Origin: an uncultured candidate division Zixibacteria bacterium
GTDB taxonomy: Bacteria; Zixibacteria; MSB-5A5; GN15; FEB-12
Assembly (NCBI GenBank): GCA_963806185.1
Contig: CAWDXE010000006.1
Span: 1 to 64,000, forward strand
Direction: 5' to 3'
DNA: 64,000 nt
Positions 2-12,867 of the stretch are shown piece by piece. A program made the translations under genes and the position numbers. Within the stretch, counting starts at the first letter, position 1. Each line of letters opens with the position of its first letter. The notes under the pieces are model-generated. The model was not told the origin of the DNA. It worked only from the letters and a program-made list of their open reading frames with translations, and did no database searches.

Positions 2-1183
2 GACTGCGACGAGGACGACTGCGATAAGGACTTTCTGCGGACCGAGATCACCTTTGTCAATTTCGTCCGCGACCGAGCCTTGGCCGACATTCATGTACTG
101 GTGGCCAAGGAAGACAACGCCGCCGGCGGCGACAATTTCAAACTGGAATTCATCGGCAAGGCAATGTTCGACGGAATGCGCGACACGCTGCAGTTTTTCA
201 CCCAGCCCTCGGACACTGACGATAAGATTCGCACGCAACTCGCCGCTACTGTTCGGCTTGGACTGATGCGTTTTGTCGCCCGCACGCCGATCGCCCGGGA
301 CGTGGTAATTTCGTACGAGCGACCAGCCAAGCCCGCCGAGGTGAAAGACAAGTGGAACTACTGGGTGTTTGAAATCAGTATGAACGGTTGGTTCCAGGGA
401 CAGCAATCATTCAAAGAATGGCAGCTCTGGACCAACTGGCAGGCCCGGCGCGTGACCGAAAAAAACAAGCTGTACCTTTCCTTCTGGGCCGAACACAGTG
501 AGGAGGTCTACAAATATGAGGCGTGGGTGGTGGACCCGGACGATTCAATTCCGGTACTCCGTTCCTTCCGGTCAGTGAAGGCCCTGCAAAGCGAGGGGGG
601 CGAGATCGAACAATATTGGGGACTCGACGGGCACTGGTCGGTGGGCAGCGGTATCGGGTTTTCCACCTCGGAGTTCTCCAATCTCGATGGTCAGACTTAC
701 GTCTTCGGCGGACTCGAGTACAGCATCTTTCCCTACAAAGAATCGACCCGGCGTGAAATACAGCTGCGCACCACGCTGCTGGAGATCTATGCCGACTACA
801 TTGATGAGACCATTTTCAATAAGCGCAATCAATGGTTGACCAAGGGGAAGCTTTCGGCCAATATCAAATTCACACAGCCCTGGGGATCGACGGGGATATA
901 CCTGGAAGGCTCCGAGTATCTCCACGACTTTGATCGATACCGCCTCCAAATACAGGGGGATCTCTCCTTACGACTGTTCGCGGGCTTTGAGTTGGAACTC
1001 AACGGATGGGCGGCCAAGATACACGATCAGGTCTCGCTGGCCAAAGGTGACGCCACGGACGAGGACGTACTCCTGCAGCGGCGGCAGCTGGCCACCAGCT
1101 ATCAATACAATCTTTCAGTGGGGATCAGTTATACATTCGGATCGGTGTACACAAATATCGTGAATCCGCGCTTTGGCGGGTGA
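2..1183 (+). CDS. Putative outer-membrane beta-barrel protein, 5'-truncated by window edge
   Basis: Frame is open from position 2 (DCDEDDCDKDFLRTEITFVNFVRDRALADIHVL). Amphipathic beta-strands with aromatic residues; ends SVGISYTFGSVYTNIVNPRFGG. Confidence 0.65.
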   Translation, partial: DCDEDDCDKDFLRTEITFVNFVRDRALADIHVLVAKEDNAAGGDNFKLEFIGKAMFDGMRDTLQFFTQPSDTDDKIRTQLAATVRLGLMRFVARTPIARDVVISYERPAKPAEVKDKWNYWVFEISMNGWFQGQQSFKEWQLWTNWQARRVTEKNKLYLSFWAEHSEEVYKYEAWVVDPDDSIPVLRSFRSVKALQSEGGEIEQYWGLDGHWSVGSGIGFSTSEFSNLDGQTYVFGGLEYSIFPYKESTRREIQLRTTLLEIYADYIDETIFNKRNQWLTKGKLSANIKFTQPWGSTGIYLEGSEYLHDFDRYRLQIQGDLSLRLFAGFELELNGWAAKIHDQVSLAKGDATDEDVLLQRRQLATSYQYNLSVGISYTFGSVYTNIVNPRFGG

Positions 1184-1208
1184 GCGACCGTTAGCAAAGG
1201 TGCACTCC

Positions 1209-3251
1209 ATGCGGCGATCATATCAAATCTACGGCGTCGTATCAGTATTCGTCATTGCGGTGCTGATCTACTGGCGCACGGCGTATCCAGGCATCTCGTG
1301 GTGGGAAAACGGCGAATTGGCCGCAGCGGCCAGTGTGTTGGGAGTAGTGCACCCCCCGGGCTCGCTCATCCCGACAGTGGTCGGCTGGTTGTTTCTGAAA
1401 TTGCCACTGGGGTTCTCCCCCGCCTTCCAGTTGAACATTCTGGCCGGACTAGTGGCCGCCTGTGTTGCGGGGTTGACCCTGGTGATCGGTCTGCGGTTGA
1501 CGAACGGCTCTGTTCAAGGGACATCAGTCAATAAATGGATAACGACAATTGTGCTCATAGCGGCCGGTCTGGGATTCGCCTTCAGCCGTACCGTGTGGTA
1601 CAACGGGACGGTATACACACCGTACATCTTTACCGCGTTATTTACCGCAGCAATCGTATGGGCGCTCCTTCACTGGTGGGAAACAGCCGGCACGCCGGCT
1701 GATTTGCGATGGATGTTCATCATCTTCTTGTTGGTGGGACTCGACATTTCGGTGCATCGGACCAACGCCCTGCTGATTCCGGGCCTGGGGGCGGCTTTCT
1801 TGTTGTGCCACTGGAGAACGGTGCTGTCGTGGCGAGCCTGGCTGGCGGGTATCGTCGGGCTGGCGGTCGGCCTGAGTTTCTTCCTGATCACCATGCCTAT
1901 GGCAGCCGCACACCCGGCGTTGAATGCAAACGACCCGAGCACGTTTGGCCGGTTCTGGGATTACTTCACGGTCAAGCAGTACGGGGGCGGTTTTCTGGTT
2001 GACATCTATCCCCGCAAGGGAGCGTTCTGGTCCGATCAGGTGGCCGATTACCTGACCGGCTTCTTCGCCAATTTCGCCAACACCAGCGGGCCGCTGGGAC
2101 CGCTGGGCGGGCTTCCGTTCATCATGGGTATAGTCGGTATGGGGTCCCTATTCCAACGCGACAAGAAACTCGCGAGCGCGCTATTGATTCTGTTTCTCTG
2201 CACGAGCCTGGGCGCGATCATTTATTTCAACGTACCGGCAAACTACTTCCGGGCGATGGACCGGCATTACCTGCCGTCATTTGTCATCTTCGGACTATTG
2301 GCCATCGCGGGGGCCATGTCATTCATCCAATGGCTGCAGTCATTCGCTTTCGGCCGATGGGCACCGTTGATCGGCGCGGCCGTACTTCTCCTGATGCCGA
2401 TTGCGCAGGTAGCGGCCAACTTCAAGGTGCTGGATAATTCCGAAAACTATGCCGCCATTGATACGGGAAACAACATGCTGCAATCGGTGCCGGAGAACGG
2501 CATATTGATCGTGGCGGGCGATGCTGACACGTACGCTGTATGGTACCTCCAAATCGCCGAGCGGATGCGCCCGGATGTGACATCGCTGAATATCAGCCTG
2601 CTCAATACACAATGGTATGTTCGCCAGATGCTGAATGAGGACTCCAGCCTGGGTATCACGCTCACAGATTCCGAACTGGCCGGGTTGGGACTCACCCAGT
2701 GGCGCGACACGACGATCGCAATCCCGCTGGCACACTCATTCACCCGACCGGACAACACAACCATCGACACGGCGCACATGCGTTTTCCCCCAACCATGCA
2801 GGAACGGTATGTGTTAGGGCAGGATGTGATGATTCGTCGAATACTGTGCGGTAATGCCTGGCGACGGCCGGTGTACGCATCGTCGTTTGCCTTCGGCCAG
2901 CTCGGCTGGCTCGCACCGTACAGTCAATGCGAGGGGATAGTGAGGCAGATCATGCCTTATCAGGATCCTCGGCCGAATGTCGGATTGATTGAGCAACGGT
3001 TCCTGCATGACTACCGCCTGCGCGGCTTTTCGGATTCGACCAGAACGCTTGACTGGATGACACAGGGCATCGGCCGGGGGATGTGGGGTGAGTTCTTCTA
3101 TTTGTTGACCAGTACCGACGACCTCGCCCAGCGGCAGAAGTGGCGTGACGCGATGCAGGAGCGGCTACCCCTGGACCGGCTTGATCCGCCGTCTCAAATG
3201 ACCCAGGCTGTTGAATCGCTCTGCGGAGAGGTCAAGACACCTCAGAAGTGA
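1209..3251 (+). CDS. DUF2723 / TMEM260-like multi-pass membrane glycosyltransferase (GT-C-like)
   Basis: N-terminal WWENGE...GVVHPPG motif, ~11 hydrophobic segments, DRHYLPSF and GDADTY motifs. ATG at 1209 preferred as start. Confidence 0.8.
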   Translation: MRRSYQIYGVVSVFVIAVLIYWRTAYPGISWWENGELAAAASVLGVVHPPGSLIPTVVGWLFLKLPLGFSPAFQLNILAGLVAACVAGLTLVIGLRLTNGSVQGTSVNKWITTIVLIAAGLGFAFSRTVWYNGTVYTPYIFTALFTAAIVWALLHWWETAGTPADLRWMFIIFLLVGLDISVHRTNALLIPGLGAAFLLCHWRTVLSWRAWLAGIVGLAVGLSFFLITMPMAAAHPALNANDPSTFGRFWDYFTVKQYGGGFLVDIYPRKGAFWSDQVADYLTGFFANFANTSGPLGPLGGLPFIMGIVGMGSLFQRDKKLASALLILFLCTSLGAIIYFNVPANYFRAMDRHYLPSFVIFGLLAIAGAMSFIQWLQSFAFGRWAPLIGAAVLLLMPIAQVAANFKVLDNSENYAAIDTGNNMLQSVPENGILIVAGDADTYAVWYLQIAERMRPDVTSLNISLLNTQWYVRQMLNEDSSLGITLTDSELAGLGLTQWRDTTIAIPLAHSFTRPDNTTIDTAHMRFPPTMQERYVLGQDVMIRRILCGNAWRRPVYASSFAFGQLGWLAPYSQCEGIVRQIMPYQDPRPNVGLIEQRFLHDYRLRGFSDSTRTLDWMTQGIGRGMWGEFFYLLTSTDDLAQRQKWRDAMQERLPLDRLDPPSQMTQAVESLCGEVKTPQK

Positions 3252-3325: not shown

Positions 3326-5956
3326 TTACTTCTTCTTCGCCAGCTCTTCAACCATCTGCTTCAGCTCTTCCACCTGAGCTTTTAGGTCAGTGTTTTCTTT
3401 CTTAAGCTGTTTGATGGCCGCCAGCGCGATGCCTGACGGATCGATGGTCGAGATGGTTTTATCGCTGTTCCCCACGCCGAAAGCGGCTTTGAAATCCTGA
3501 GCGGTCGGTCCAATATGCTTGACCTCGTCCGATTCCGCTCGATAATTCCACTCCGAAATGGGAAGCTCTTCGATCTTGTTGAGAATCTCTTCGCCGTCAA
3601 CCGGCTGGAAGTTTTCCTTGAGATTCTTGTCCGAAGCGTTAACCCAGTCGCCGGCATTGGTCAATCGCGCACCGCTGGAGTGATGGATGGGGGCGTCCGG
3701 AAGCATTTCATTAATGCCGATTCTCCCCTGGCCGTCGATGACGATGGTCGGCGTTCCCGAACCGTTGCTCAGCGTGAGTGTCGCACTGGCATCACCGGCC
3801 GAGAGTGAGGCGCTTGATGAACTCAAGCCCGACGAGCGCGACAACTGTATCGTGGTGCCGTCGCCGGTCATGACATGAATCACGCCTGACACCCCACTTG
3901 ACGTGGAACTGCTCAACTGCATCTGCGCGGTCCCGGCCGTGTCACACGAGATGTCGGATTCGGCCGATGACGCTCCGTTAGTCGTCCGCAGATTGCTGGA
4001 ACACTTGGTGCGATTCGCTTTTTCTTTCGCCTTCATGAGCGCCGGCATGAGCATTCCCGGCGGCGTATACGTCACCGCTGTCTCATGCGACGCCGAATCG
4101 GCCTCACAACGCGTGGACGCCGTCGACCATTGCGAACCGTTGGTCACCTGCAACCCAACACGCGCGCTCTGTGGATCAACCGTGTCGGCAATGATGTTAT
4201 CCTGCGTGGGGATGTCGCCGTTCTGGAACTTCTGGTAGAGATAGCTTCTCGTTTCCTCGGAGGCCGACTTGCACGAGCCCTCAGGAACGTCGTCGTGATT
4301 CAGATCGACCGAGACAGTCGTCGACGCGCTCTTGGAATCGATGAGCGCCGAGAATTGACTCTGGGTCGGCTTGTCGCCGCGCTCGAAATAGCTCTTTAGA
4401 ATTGAGCGATCGACTGAGGTCTTCGAACTGGTGCCGACATCCGGCACGCCGTCATGATCGACATCAACGGAGGCCTCGACTGTGGCGTCGGAATTGTCGA
4501 CTTTCTGCCATACGGTGCGTTCGGCATGGCCGTCGCCGTCGTCATCCATGTCGCAACCAGTCACCGAACCGGAGCTATCGGACGTGCTTCCGAAACTTGA
4601 GCGTCTCCCGCTGAGCTCTACTTTGAAGCCGCGCACCTGGGCAAACTTGTCATCAGCTACAGCCGAGCATGAAACCTCGGGCACGCTGTCGCCATCGTCG
4701 TCGATTTCACATCGGTGAATTGCGCTCGCCGGTCCGGTGGAGCCCGACACCAGCACAAGTCTGGCATTGCTGGCGCCGGTACCTTTAGTCTTGATCGCCA
4801 TGGCGGAGCTCGTAGGTGTGAGCGATGAGGTGACGCTCGACGCCCCCAGCAAGCCCATGCTTTGCAATCTTGCTTCCAATTCGTTCAAGCGAACGCGCAC
4901 ATTGGAGGACGATGATGCGTCAGGGTTGCTCACTTCGGTGGAAACGGTCGCCGAGTCGGGCATCAGCTTCACACTGTGGCCCTCGAAATCGGTGCCGTTC
5001 CAGCGAATGGTGCCGGAGTACGCTCCGTCAGCGTCGACACTGTCGACAACCTGACTCTGAGTCGGTACGTCGCCGCTCTGAAAGTACGTCTTCAGTATTG
5101 ACCGGGACAATTTCGCAGACGACGATGAACCAACGTCGGGTGTGCCGTCGTCGTCGACGTCTACGCCAACCAGGCTCAGCGCTTCAGAATTATCCACTTT
5201 CTGCCAGGCGGTCCGATCGGCATGGCCGTCGCCGTCAAGATCAGCGACAACAACAACCGAGCCGCCCGCTCCACCGCCGCCGCCACCGCTGCCGGCTGTC
5301 GTCGTGACGCGGGAGTCGGAGAGGCCGTCGCCATCGTCATCACAGTCGAGATAATGCTGCAATTTGCCGGGCGTTGCTTCGGTCCTGGCATTCCCCCAAT
5401 GAGCCTGCCCCGGACTGTACAAGCGAAGCCCGAGCAGGGCGCGATCGTCCGCTAGATGAACGTAGCTATCGATGAGTCCGGAGAAACTCGATCGCGAGGC
5501 ATCTATTCTGGTCGTGTCGTTTCCTACGCCCATGTGCAAACTGCCGTGACCGGGGACATCGCTGCTCACCCCACCGGCCAGTGCAGCAGCCGGCACGGAA
5601 CCCAATCTAAGCCGAGGCAGGAGTGGTGTGCCGCTAATCGACTGTTGCAGGTAGAGATCATCACTCGAGTGGTCCGAGAAGAGGGTTCCGAAGCTGCTCG
5701 AACGCCCGAGCTCGCAGGAGAACAAACCATTCTTCACCTGGATGTCCTGGAGTTCACTCCAGACCATACTTCCGCCAACGGAATCGGTCCAGATACTGAA
5801 CGTGATGGCGTAGAAGCCGTCACTAACCGGCGTATCGTCTGAACCCAGCAGACGACCCTGGTGGCTGATGGTGTTGGACGCACCCGAGGCGGTAAGCGCC
5901 GACAGGCAGACCAGGAAAGTGGCGACGAGAATCGACAGACGTGGAAAGCGCATCAA
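3326..5956 (-). CDS. Secreted fibre-like protein with C-terminal peptidase S74 intramolecular chaperone and mosaic central region
   Basis: Signal peptide; N-domain TISHQGRLL...VKNGLFSCELG; multiple DxDxDG loops; S74 motif SDKNLKENF...WNY...HIGPTAQDF followed by a coiled coil. Confidence 0.85.
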   Translation of the reverse strand: MMRFPRLSILVATFLVCLSALTASGASNTISHQGRLLGSDDTPVSDGFYAITFSIWTDSVGGSMVWSELQDIQVKNGLFSCELGRSSSFGTLFSDHSSDDLYLQQSISGTPLLPRLRLGSVPAAALAGGVSSDVPGHGSLHMGVGNDTTRIDASRSSFSGLIDSYVHLADDRALLGLRLYSPGQAHWGNARTEATPGKLQHYLDCDDDGDGLSDSRVTTTAGSGGGGGGAGGSVVVVADLDGDGHADRTAWQKVDNSEALSLVGVDVDDDGTPDVGSSSSAKLSRSILKTYFQSGDVPTQSQVVDSVDADGAYSGTIRWNGTDFEGHSVKLMPDSATVSTEVSNPDASSSSNVRVRLNELEARLQSMGLLGASSVTSSLTPTSSAMAIKTKGTGASNARLVLVSGSTGPASAIHRCEIDDDGDSVPEVSCSAVADDKFAQVRGFKVELSGRRSSFGSTSDSSGSVTGCDMDDDGDGHAERTVWQKVDNSDATVEASVDVDHDGVPDVGTSSKTSVDRSILKSYFERGDKPTQSQFSALIDSKSASTTVSVDLNHDDVPEGSCKSASEETRSYLYQKFQNGDIPTQDNIIADTVDPQSARVGLQVTNGSQWSTASTRCEADSASHETAVTYTPPGMLMPALMKAKEKANRTKCSSNLRTTNGASSAESDISCDTAGTAQMQLSSSTSSGVSGVIHVMTGDGTTIQLSRSSGLSSSSASLSAGDASATLTLSNGSGTPTIVIDGQGRIGINEMLPDAPIHHSSGARLTNAGDWVNASDKNLKENFQPVDGEEILNKIEELPISEWNYRAESDEVKHIGPTAQDFKAAFGVGNSDKTISTIDPSGIALAAIKQLKKENTDLKAQVEELKQMVEELAKKK
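4355..5236 (-). repeat. Internal 62-aa duplication in the fibre protein (copies 5051-5236 and 4355-4540)
   Basis: DGDGHADRTAWQKVDNS...RSILKTYFQSGDVPTQSQ aligns without gaps to DGDGHAERTVWQKVDNS...RSILKSYFERGDKPTQSQ, offset 232 aa. Confidence 0.9.
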
Positions 5957-9515: not shown

Positions 9516-10498
9516 ATGAAAAGTATTTTAGTCACCGGCGCTCTGGGGCAAATCGGTTCCGAGCTGGTTATCGAACTTCGCAAGCGGTACGGTCAGAAAT
9601 CCGTCATCGCCACCGACATCCGCATGCCGACCGACGTCACCCTGCGTGATTCGGGACCGTTTGAATTTCTCGATTGCACCGACCCCAATCACATCACCCG
9701 CGTGATGCAAATCTACAAAGTTGACACCATCTACCATCTCGCGGCGCTGCTTGTCGGCGGTGGCCGAATCCAAGCCGACCCTGGCCTGGGCGGTCAACGT
9801 CACCGGCATGTACAACATGCTCGAGGCGGCGCGACAGTATAAGTGCCAGTTGTTCGTCCCCAGCTCGATCGGCGCTTTCGGTTCGTCGACGCCCAAAGTC
9901 CGCACGCCGCAGGATACGATCCAGCGGCCGGACACGATGTACGGCGTCACGAAAGTCGCCGGCGAATTGATCTGCGACTACTATCACAAGCGGTTTGGTC
10001 TCGATACGCGCGGCGTTCGGTTCCCCGGCCTAATTTCCTACCAGACGGAGCCGGGCGGCGGGACGACCGATTACGCCGTCTCCATCTACTACGAAGCGAT
10101 CAAGCACAAGAAATTCACCTGCTATCTGCACGAGCAGACGCGCATGGACATGATGTACATGCCCGATGCGCTTGCACGCCATGATCAGCCTGATGGAGGC
10201 CGAAGCATCGCAGCTGATCCATCGCAATGCCTTCAATGTCACGGCGATGAACTTCACGCCGCGTGAAGTAGCCGCTGAGATTCGAAAGCATATTCCGGAT
10301 TTCACGATAGATTATCAGATCGATCCGGTCCGCCAGGGGATCGCTGATTCCTGGCCGGACAGTCTCGATGATTCCTGCGCTCGCGAGGAGTGGGGCTGGA
10401 AACCGGAGTATGATCTGTCGAAGATGACAGTCGACATGCTGACCAAACTCCGCGCCAAGCTAAATGCCGAGGGCGTCACGACAGGGGCGAAATTGTGA
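9516..10498 (+). CDS. tdh: SDR-type L-threonine 3-dehydrogenase (two apparent frameshifts, ~9750 and ~10175)
   Basis: [15 protein letters not shown] / [36 protein letters not shown] and RQGIADSWP lie in three consecutive frames. Confidence 0.8.
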
Positions 10499-10869
10499 TC
10501 GACGGCATTGGAGTCGATACGATCGAAACGGCCAGAGTGAAAAAGCAGCTGGCAGTCGATCACGGCTTCAAAGAGGCGATCTTCACCGCCGGCGAAATAG
10601 CCTATTGCGACAGCAAGCGCAACAGCGCCCCATATTACGCCGCCCGGTTCGCCGCCAAGGAAGCATTCTTGAAAGCGCTGGGCACCGGCCTTCGCGACGG
10701 CATTGCCTTCGCCGATATTGAAATTCTCCGCGACCCGCTTGGTCGCCCCTCCCTGAAATTGCATCGCCGCGCCGCCGAACAACTGCAGGCGGGCGGCCCC
10801 GCACATATACACCTATCATTGTCACACGTCGACGATGCGGCCACGGCCGTAGTCGTCATTGAGCGTTAG
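10495..10869 (+). CDS. acpS: Holo-ACP synthase (4'-phosphopantetheinyl transferase)
   Basis: GIGVD, ARFAAKEAFLKALGTG, GRP, LSLSH. Confidence 0.95.
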   Translation: MIDGIGVDTIETARVKKQLAVDHGFKEAIFTAGEIAYCDSKRNSAPYYAARFAAKEAFLKALGTGLRDGIAFADIEILRDPLGRPSLKLHRRAAEQLQAGGPAHIHLSLSHVDDAATAVVVIER

Positions 10870-10883
10870 AAGGAATATCGGGC

Positions 10884-12595
10884 ATGGCAAATTTCCAAGG
10901 GTACGAAAAACATACGAACGGGTTTCACCTGGTCAATCGCCGAAAAGGAACTGGGGTATACGCCCGGGGACGACATCAATATCGGCTGGTACTGCTCCGA
11001 CCGGATCTGTCAAATGGGCAAGGCCGACAAGCTCGGTCTGATCTGGCAGGGCATGACCGGCACGAAAAGAAATACACCTACAACGACATTCGTCTGGCCA
11101 GCAACACGATCGGCGCCTTTCTGCGCGGACTGGGGATCGATGCCGGGCGACCGGGTCTGCCTGTTCATGGACAAGATTCCTGAGTTGTACCTGGGCTTTG
11201 TCGGGGTGCTCAAAATCGGCGCCGTCGCGCAGCCGCTGTTTTCCGCCTTTGGCGAGGAATCACTGTTTGTCCGCCTGAGCAACGCCGAGACATGCGCCAT
11301 CATCACCCAGCGCAAGCATGTCGGCAAGGTTCGCAAGATCATTCACGAACTGCCGCACCTGAAACATATCATCGTCGTCGATTACGACGGCAAAAAGCCG
11401 CTGCAGGATCGGGAAGTCGCCTTCTCGCTGGAAGATGCGCCCAAAGTTGAGCATATCGACATTCATCCCACCAAGGCGGAGTCGCCGTCGGTCCTGCATT
11501 ACACTTCCGGCACGACCGGTCTTCCCAAAGGAGTGCAGCACGTTCATTACTCGCTGATGTCGCAGTACCTGACGACCAAGTGGGTGCTGGACATCAACGA
11601 CGACGACATCTACTGGTGCACGGCCGATCCGGGCTGGGTAACAGGTACTTCGTACGGCATCATCGGCGCCGTTTGCGACCGGCGTCACCCAGTGTGTGAC
11701 CGACATCGGTTTTTCGGCCGAAGCCTGGTACCGCTTTATCGAGAAATACAAGATTACCATCTGGTACTCCGCGCCGACCGCCATTCGCTCGCTGATGAAG
11801 GCGGGTGATGAGGTCGTCAAGAAGTTCGACCTCTCCTCTCTGCGCCATCTGGCCAGTGTGGGCGAGCCGCTCAATGCCGAAGCGGTCATCTGGTCACAGC
11901 GCGTGTTCGGTCTTCCGTTCCACGATACGTACTGGCAGACCGAGACTGGGTCGATCATGATCACGAATTTCCCCGGCATGAAGATCAAGCCGGGATCGAT
12001 GGGAAGAGCGTTTCCGGGCATTACGGCGACTGTGCTCGACGCCAAGACACTATGAACCAATTCAGGAACGGGGGCGTGTCGGCCTGATTGCGTTCAAGCC
12101 GGATTGGCCGTCCCGGATGCGCGGCTACTGGAACAACGAAGCGACGTTCCAGGGCAAGTTCAAGAACGGGTGGTATCTCTCCGGCGATCGCTCAAGCATC
12201 GACAACGAAGGGTACTTCTGGTTCACCGGGCGCGATGATGATATCATCAATACCGGCCGGCCATCTGGTCAGTCCGTTCGAAGTGGAGTCGGCGCTGCTC
12301 GAGCATCCGGCCGTGGCCGAATCGGCGGTTGTCGCCAAACCGGACGAGATCAACATGGAAGTCGTCAAGGCCTTCGTGCTTACTCAAACCGGGGAATACC
12401 GCCAGCGCCGAGCTCGAACTGGATATCATGAATTTCATCCGCAAGAGACTCTCTCCGCTGGCTATGCCGCAGGAGATCGAATATGTACCGTCTCTCCCCA
12501 AGACCCGCTCCGGCAAGATCATGCGACGACTGCTGCGGGCCAAGGAGTGGGGCGAGGAGATCGGCGATACCTCAACACTGGAAAACGACGATTAA
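10884..12595 (+). CDS. acsA: Acetate-CoA ligase-like adenylation enzyme (several apparent frameshifts)
   Basis: [57 protein letters not shown] and [11 protein letters not shown] are split across successive frames. Confidence 0.8.
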
Positions 12596-12617
12596 GCGAT
12601 AGCTCAGGAGGCATTGT

Positions 12618-12867
12618 GTGGAAAGTAATGTCAAAGACATCGTACTCACCTACGTCAAGAATGAATATCTCGAGGACGAGGATCAGGAACTCACCTACGA
12701 CACGCCGTTGATTTCGGGCGGGATTGTCGATTCGTTCTCGATGGTGTCGCTCAAGCGGTTTCTGGAGAACAAGTACAAGATTTCGATTCCGGATGACAAA
12801 GCGACGCCTGAAGCGTTCGATTCGGTGAACAAGATCGTCACACTTGTGCAAAGAGTTTGTGAAATAG
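12618..12867 (+). CDS. Stand-alone acyl carrier protein (one extra A near 12851 hides the TAG at 12865-12867)
   Basis: [20 protein letters not shown] phosphopantetheine-attachment motif; acidic, ~82 aa. Confidence 0.85.

Follow-up and report, generated by a model that had tools for sequence, protein, structure and literature searches.

Why should the stalk of a bacterial surface fibre contain short pieces of pilins, injection tubes and phage tail proteins? The question is raised by a gene at 3326..5953 of a 64,000-nucleotide stretch, hereafter the window, at the start of contig CAWDXE010000006.1 from an uncultured Zixibacteria bacterium. It is a single intact open reading frame (ORF) on the minus strand, as are all its features given below, and encodes an 875-residue S74 fibre, P0001. 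From sequence comparisons we propose, at about an even chance, that the stalk of this fibre is an array of foreign peptides of 7–25 residues, displayed outside the cell as bait or false signals for receptors of linear peptides.

The initial annotation of this gene described islands of unusual composition in a Ser/Thr/Asp-rich scaffold, and this patchwork proved to be real. All islands lie where they had been placed, within one ORF; 11 of them make up 187 of the 500 residues between residues 157 and 656. Ser, Thr and Asp together account for 22% of island residues versus 40% of the scaffold, Lys and Arg for 14% versus 5%, and F/W/Y/L/M for 21% versus 7%. Donors were traced for six of the 11 islands: one derives from a pilin, two from gp19 tubes, and three are copies of a motif at the head of tail proteins. 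Searched separately against shuffled controls, the pilin, tube and head-motif islands exceed the shuffles, and no island resembles the host genome's own ORFs above chance. When each island was scanned on its own, neither Pfam nor PHROG gave a significant match (0/11, best E = 0.16); family hidden Markov models (HMMs) thus miss the islands, and direct searches find them.

The island nearest the C-terminus, residues 633–656 (3986..4057), corresponds, as had been suggested, to the α1 segment of DUF1559 prepilins, here of Planctomycetota. Its best pilin match is identical at 21 of 24 positions, against a maximum of 10 in shuffled sequences, and all five matching pilins that were scanned are true prepilins with N_methyl and DUF1559. 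Among 53 loci from GTDB genomes, 30 share only this segment with P0001; ten of these are pilin-type genes, nine of them from Planctomycetota, and the other 20 are unrelated scaffolds from Verrucomicrobiota, Phycisphaerales, Kapaibacterium and Fimbriimonas. Of 251 genomes from the host's own phylum, 9 carry the island, each time in an open frame of 501–892 residues, as judged by frame length only. A second piece of the same donor pilin is found in three fibres. In a single-sequence model the segment is helical, at a predicted local distance difference test score (pLDDT) of 36. Planctomycetota genomes with the donor pilin (L281–L283) also encode proteins with an N-terminal domain like that of mosaic adhesive trimer (MAT) fibres.

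Two further islands had been likened to gp19 tail-tube segments, and both assignments hold. Residues 431–449 (4607..4663, of which 4607–4651 had been annotated) match the N-terminus, comprising the N-loop and β1, of a gp19 tube of a contractile injection system (CIS), with 14 of 15 positions identical in the best case. An exact pattern for residues 436–444 recovered 15 metagenome loci, of which 12 are N-termini of tube-sized ORFs, one an exported tube fusion, one a patchwork fibre and one a chance match; PF06841 was confirmed in all six tube ORFs with the pattern that were scanned. The other island, residues 177–189 (5387..5425), corresponds to the end of the β2–β3 loop of a second tube. It is identical at 13 of 13 positions in the gene immediately upstream of such a tube at L213 (PF06841, E = 3e-11), a locus retrieved with residues 436–444 only, so that residues 177–189 played no role in finding it. 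By sequence, then, the two islands appear to stem from two adjacent gp19 tube genes of one CIS type. At L216 the tube pair follows a sheath gene 86% identical (111/129) to the sheath of G151, a Planctomycetota genome that also holds a matching pilin, which suggests one target lineage. The tube of G151 itself is the source version of the residue 177–189 loop in four other fibres; P0001 and P0005 carry, at the same position, versions of one loop from different tube subfamilies, and three sites of one tube are represented across the fibre family. Pfam-selected gp19 tubes match neither island, which indicates that the donors form one subfamily. Exact patterns for residues 386–394 and 436–444 had no matches in viral contigs, and for the latter a phage origin of the tube donor is therefore not supported. 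No gp19 gene was matched in the 82%-complete host genome, in a search whose positive control gave no signal, and none of the ORFs next to the fibre gene could be recognised as sheath or baseplate.

The third traced source is a motif, LKxYFxxGDxPTQ, which had been noted in three copies and compared with the N-termini of tail- and CIS-associated proteins. That origin stands; two copies fit the pattern and the third is a variant. Copy 1 (residues 284–301, 5051..5104) is identical to viral loci at 12 of 18 positions (shuffled maximum 10), the complete copy 2 (residues 516–540, 4334..4408) at 19 of 25, and the variant copy 3 (residues 569–585, 4199..4249) at 11 of 17 (shuffled maximum 8). Each copy beats all 100 shuffles, with part of the identity built in, as the viral loci were picked by the motif itself. 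In 124 of 127 viral loci the motif sits 9–14 residues after a Met, and 3 of 10 scanned viral ORFs that carry it match tail fibre or spike PHROGs. It also begins a structural protein of Flavobacterium phage pippi8-1 (E = 1e-3) and a gene within an extracellular CIS (eCIS) locus of Aureibacter (E = 0.2). Residues 157–176 (5426..5485) continue the motif, at 8 of 14 positions against viral loci with 1 of 100 shuffles equal, and recur in Bacteroidota-type fibres. No match to residues 155–181 was found in 351 genomes and plasmids. No Pfam or PHROG model matched the ~25-residue motif (L054–L180) in the scans run, and it may be an undescribed docking peptide.

The remaining islands are of fibre type or lack a donor. 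Residues 314–325 (4979..5014) are a segment native to Bacteroidota-type fibres, and residues 354–369 (4847..4894) a coiled-coil-like segment that forms the C-terminus of one such fibre, P0083; both match P0078/P0083. Of their earlier description as phage or fibre motifs only the fibre part survives, for phage searches gave nothing for 4847–4894 and a single match at E = 5 for 4979–5014. The exact pattern of residues 314–325 also occurs in two giant-virus contigs (L181 and L182), in the first of these within a long fibre-like ORF. AIKTKGTGA (residues 386–394, 4772..4798), previously taken for a phage structural or fibre motif, is one of the commonest words of the family, and no donor was found: searches gave one weak match in 301 genomes of G151's phylum, none in 301 genomes of G152's phylum and none in plasmids. 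Residues 250–256 (5186..5206) are a fibre-type motif inside an internal duplication, a 56-nucleotide repeat (86%) with its second copy at 4485–4540, and the motif returns there as residues 483–489 (4487..4507).

The low-complexity core of P0001 has 85 homologues, nearly all with S74 and, where named, mostly from Zixibacteria or unplaced bacteria. By island order derived from de novo word clusters, the 86 proteins have 86 different architectures with a median overlap of 0.2, and 74 of 158 single-copy motif pairs are found in one order in some proteins and in the other order in others, compared with 0 of 688 in a terminal-domain control. The stalk is therefore, as had been supposed, a library of borrowed peptides that varies among homologues, with the two ends collinear. 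One of seven donor proteins is matched by 37 of the 86 fibres and by none of the 86 reversed sequences. Exchange between paralogues is visible at L024, where one gene joins a 5′ half like the second gene of L023 (1371 nucleotides, 73%) to a 3′ half like the third (990 nucleotides, 83%). A search for shorter homologues of residues 280–455 gave one fibre fragment among 459 candidates. Patchwork fibre genes stand alone or in tandem arrays, at loci that are otherwise unrelated. No shared neighbour, such as a reverse transcriptase, integrase or recombinase of a capture or diversification system (DGR, Cas1/RT or integron), was seen when the ORF lists of 15 of these loci were inspected by eye.

These data bear on the possibility that nothing was borrowed and that the matches reflect convergence, the sharing of ancient peptides or an error of assembly. 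Family HMMs leave the isolated islands unscored and there are apparent frameshifts elsewhere in the assembly, as this explanation would have it. It is largely refuted, and very improbable in our view, by identities of 13/13 and 21/24 to particular subfamilies rather than to gp19 tubes generally, by the 85 independent homologues, and by near-identical short contigs from two other studies that cover 4684–4834, 4900–5050 and 5240–5510 and span island–scaffold junctions, which argues against an assembly artefact. The frameshifts themselves concern EF-Tu, split across frames at G000:C4:326728–328082 and apparently in both host copies, and two window genes within 9516–12711 that look frame-split beside the intact fibre ORF; they are probably long-read indel errors.

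The vocabulary extends beyond P0001. The same words, together with snippets of HU (E = 1e-9), EF-Tu (4e-10 and 2e-13), cold-shock protein (1e-5), VgrG (0.002), Hcp (2e-4), DUF4157 (2e-4) and a tyrosine kinase (0.001), the last a catalytic-loop segment, occur in sister fibres, RHS proteins, GC-dockerin proteins and small exported proteins. In five genomes compared, the HU and cold-shock islands are closer to the Bacteroidota copies than to those of the host or of Planctomycetota, and the pilin and tube islands fit Planctomycetota; a single donor for the whole vocabulary was rejected on this ground. In Verrucomicrobiota RHS proteins (L020, L025, L027, L029, L041, L045, L050 and L051) patchworks of HU, cold-shock, EF-Tu, VgrG, tube and kinase pieces stand before the shell and at the C-terminus, the usual toxin site. 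At L042, L044, L052 and L207, exported proteins that are small or have several domains are built on Hcp-like or gp19-like frames, those of the first three loci with an inserted pilin island.

This breadth matters for the function first suggested for the islands, as mimics of assembly interfaces that jam or decoy phage tails, CIS or pili by replacing a subunit. Every traced donor in P0001 is indeed an appendage or injection-machine protein, and the L216 sheath points to one target lineage. A model of the donor tube folds as a CIS tube, with the islands on the N-loop and the end of the β2–β3 loop, which the available part of one report gives as the main ring contacts of tubes (PMC8718954). Snippets of HU, cold-shock protein, EF-Tu and kinase do not come from the interfaces of attack machines, and their presence in sister fibres and on the same unrelated scaffolds makes a library of interface inhibitors too narrow a description. 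The assembly of tubes and pili takes place within the donor cell or starts at its inner membrane, beyond a surface fibre's reach, and the segments matched by the islands are buried in finished particles; the pieces, moreover, are 13–24 residues long without the remainder of the fold. We regard interface mimicry as unlikely and prefer bait display, since some words of the vocabulary are cytoplasmic or catalytic segments and since a surface fibre would not reach assembly interfaces.

How could such pieces have entered the fibres? Relatives of the donor tube grade from whole exported tubes, via fusions and half-tubes, to islands of 13–20 residues, and 111 of 150 such relatives (P0088–P0237) pass a crude heuristic test for an export signal; this series suggests how islands could arise with no special capture enzyme. 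Outside CIS loci, at L218, L220, L223 and L224, gp19 tube genes bearing Sec or Tat signals are found in single, double and triple form, and the RHS protein P0096 terminates in a 110-residue tube piece with 73% identity. Of the capture mechanism implied by the initial annotation, dedicated machinery was not seen beside the 15 loci, and paralogue shuffling and exported whole-donor intermediates were. A second possible route is SPDIR, a microindel recombination that, according to the accessible part of a preprint, inserts 3 to ~100 bp of intra- or extragenomic DNA (bioRxiv 10.1101/2023.11.22.568220). Its insert size equals the island size; as described there, however, it is a rare, undirected mutation, which leaves the in-frame position of the islands, their bias to conserved sites and their retention unexplained. 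The synonymous sites of the P0001 islands have diverged, and no donor of the flanking residues 157–176 was found in which junction microhomologies could be sought. A possible non-appendage donor family is that of a 745-residue exported dockerin-like host protein (L244, G000:C1:432970–435204); a segment of its repeated domain is present as an island in P0077 and further fibres.

The codons indicate that the peptides are old. In the 13/13 tube match to L213, 8 of 12 degenerate codons differ; between the pilin island and 39 other copies, 5–12 of 11–18 degenerate identical codons differ; and the GC content of third codon positions is 0.69 in islands and scaffold alike. Recent DNA capture is ruled out by these comparisons for the three islands concerned, two from tubes and one from the pilin. 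In a comparison with 12 homologous genes, 615 of 1047 island residues (59%) and 1021 of 2465 scaffold residues (41%) are identical, with synonymous divergence alike at 58% and 60%. Synonymous sites have diverged while the peptides were kept, and by sequence the peptides are likely to be held by selection.

Alternatively, the islands might be structural filler, foreign fragments that entered by chance and were kept only by packing into the trimer; several are native to ordinary fibres, scaffold modules are conserved too (41%), and there are no neighbouring partner genes. Near-identical peptides nevertheless persist across unrelated scaffolds and phyla despite diverged synonymous sites, and islands occur in any order, so that packing constraints would differ by context. 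We consider filler improbable. It is the persistence of identical peptides in scaffolds unable to impose the same packing that leads us to infer a reader outside the cell.

Another kind of outside partner would be the donor protein itself. Each island might pair with the identical stretch of a partly unfolded donor, fishing for debris or gripping prey appendages for feeding or adhesion; such homotypic capture would demand near-exact identity to abundant proteins, as is observed, and MAT fibres are prey adhesins in the available part of the report on them (PMC10769870). It sits poorly with the same words at RHS C-termini and linkers and with a pilin island that is modelled as a helix and derives from an uncommon variant of the pilin; we hold it to be a rather poor prospect.

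Bait display would arise in several steps. Pieces of foreign donors, matched in frame far above chance and not by the host's own genes, would have been captured rarely and long ago, through SPDIR-like illegitimate recombination or the trimming of exported donor genes that had been fused whole. Island-plus-scaffold modules would then have been shuffled, duplicated and swapped between paralogues, as seen at sequence level, with the Asp-rich repeats as likely crossover sites. Amino acids appear to have been kept while synonymous sites diverged, in unrelated scaffolds of several phyla and subject to ascertainment bias, and this conservation points to an outside binding partner rather than to scaffold packing. 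Going by the MAT and S74 literature, the protein would be exported by Sec, anchored by its N-domain, folded as a trimer and self-cleaved at Ser774. The putative reader would be a protein that recognises peptides and belongs to a predator, a competitor, a phage or an injection system; the display would saturate or trigger it.

Several points weigh against bait display. For five of the 11 islands no donor other than a fibre is firmly established, and several resemble ordinary Bacteroidota-type fibres, in which their role may be purely structural. Island words were used to retrieve loci and homologues, which inflates island conservation, although this conservation extends to residues beyond the search words and to unsearched islands. 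The proposed direction of transfer is deduced from the integrity of the donors and the surroundings of their genes. Structural models say little on exposure of the islands: the trimer model has no confident contacts at residues 560–661, and the single-sequence model of the mature fibre (pLDDT 36) is uninformative for the island-rich part.

More broadly, a vocabulary of foreign signature peptides, from injection tubes, pilins, tail heads, HU, cold-shock protein, EF-Tu and a kinase loop, may be shared among many uncultured bacteria by horizontal exchange and displayed on their fibres, RHS proteins and small exported proteins, so that receptors with which other microbes read peptides are deceived or triggered, an idea we hold as plausible but short of even. 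If true, it would reveal a layer of linear-epitope recognition in microbial conflict, perhaps aimed here at a single lineage of Planctomycetota that has a large genome and whose pili and CIS match. Near letter-for-letter pieces of a pilin (24 residues) and of tubes (13–19 residues) in unrelated exported proteins of several phyla imply binders of short linear peptides, for which the vocabulary would be a ready list of ligands. These proteins are built from sub-domain pieces of foreign genes, and annotation by motif or HMM (HU, EF-Tu, gp19 and kinase hits) can be misled by them.

Outside the islands the fibre follows a familiar plan. By eye, residues 1–25 (5879..5953) are predicted to be a Sec-type signal peptide, with a basic start, a hydrophobic core and a small-residue cleavage site. 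A MAT-like N-terminal domain follows at about residues 26–135 (5549..5878; NF053851, E = 5.8e-5, 22.9 bits, below the cut-off of 60); homologues reach 35.6 bits at most, every one below that cut-off. Residues 662–773 (3635..3970) are predicted to form a trimeric neck and tip, confident inter-chain contacts starting at residue 662, and the S74 intramolecular chaperone/protease (residues 774–825, with SDxxxK at 774–779) and a C-terminal coiled coil occupy 3329..3634 (PF13884, E = 3.5e-13, 50.1 bits versus a cut-off of 22). A three-copy model of residues 560–875 gave a trimer score of 0.93 (best control 0.00, pLDDT 70–73); the runs share at least 75% of contacts, and true pairs passed the score mark in 21 of 30 cases, single chains in 0 of 23. 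This pass may reflect likeness to solved S74 trimers. The exported trimeric fibre of the initial annotation is accordingly borne out in its signal peptide and S74 domain, and the trimer by prediction for the C-terminal part. PDB sequence searches gave no match for two island stretches and, for the entire protein, MyRF at E = 0.06 and two weaker matches only; a search of the ESM Atlas gave no usable match.

The GC content of the gene equals that of the window. In a motif scan of the host genome P0001 was the sole multi-island protein recovered, and the remaining N-domain proteins are plain fibres or lack S74. Its neighbours are a TMEM260-like gene and an ORF that we take to be epimerase-like. 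The former, a protein O-mannosyltransferase gene at 1173–3251 of the window, converges on the fibre gene, and the Ser/Thr-rich fibre could be its substrate; it was not seen in the ORF lists of the 15 homologue loci.

Among known systems, P0001 is closest in plan to the S74 subgroup of the MAT fibres of Bdellovibrio. As far as the available part of that report goes (PMC10769870), the two share a signal peptide, S74 with SDxxxK, a predicted trimer (residues 662–875 here) and a chromosomal location outside a phage context, and the N-domain of P0001 is weakly similar to the conserved ~130-residue one of MAT fibres; the mosaicism of MAT fibres is an exchange of whole tip domains, and short foreign peptides are not described there. 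The continuous trimeric β-prism stalk of MAT fibres was not recognisable in the models of P0001, with pLDDT 36 for the monomer and no confident contacts at residues 560–661 of the trimer. P0001 differs also in its N-domain score below the NF053851 cut-off, in having no adhesive tip domain that we could find, and in a host, Zixibacteria, that is not a known predator. Unlike a phage or eCIS tail fibre, it has a signal peptide, and its neighbours are not tail genes. S74 genes have been reported in eCIS operons, in the part of the survey at hand (PMC8213781); the P0001 gene is not within one. The gp19 tubes, DUF1559 prepilins and tail head motif are island donors at 55–100% identity over 13–25 residues. 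Neither prepilin family (PF07596 and PF07963) matches P0001, which shares the 24-residue piece only, and there is no domain match to gp19/Afp1/Pvc1-type CIS tubes (PF06841, ~135 residues), of which it holds pieces of 13 and 19 residues only. We found no account of such peptide patchworks in the literature covered, which excluded most subscription journals and supplementary tables 3–4 of PMC10769870, on MAT-like proteins, where such fibres may be listed. As far as the literature was searched, the frame of the fibre has been described before and its cargo of foreign peptides has not. To our knowledge, no shuffled library with dozens of foreign peptides has previously been reported from bacterial surface fibres. 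The principle has parallels: the bait region of alpha-2-macroglobulin, the integrated decoys of plant nucleotide-binding leucine-rich repeat receptors, and the microbe-associated molecular pattern peptides elf18 and csp22 all show short or partial copies of a target to a reader protein, and EF-Tu and cold-shock peptides are known linear epitopes.

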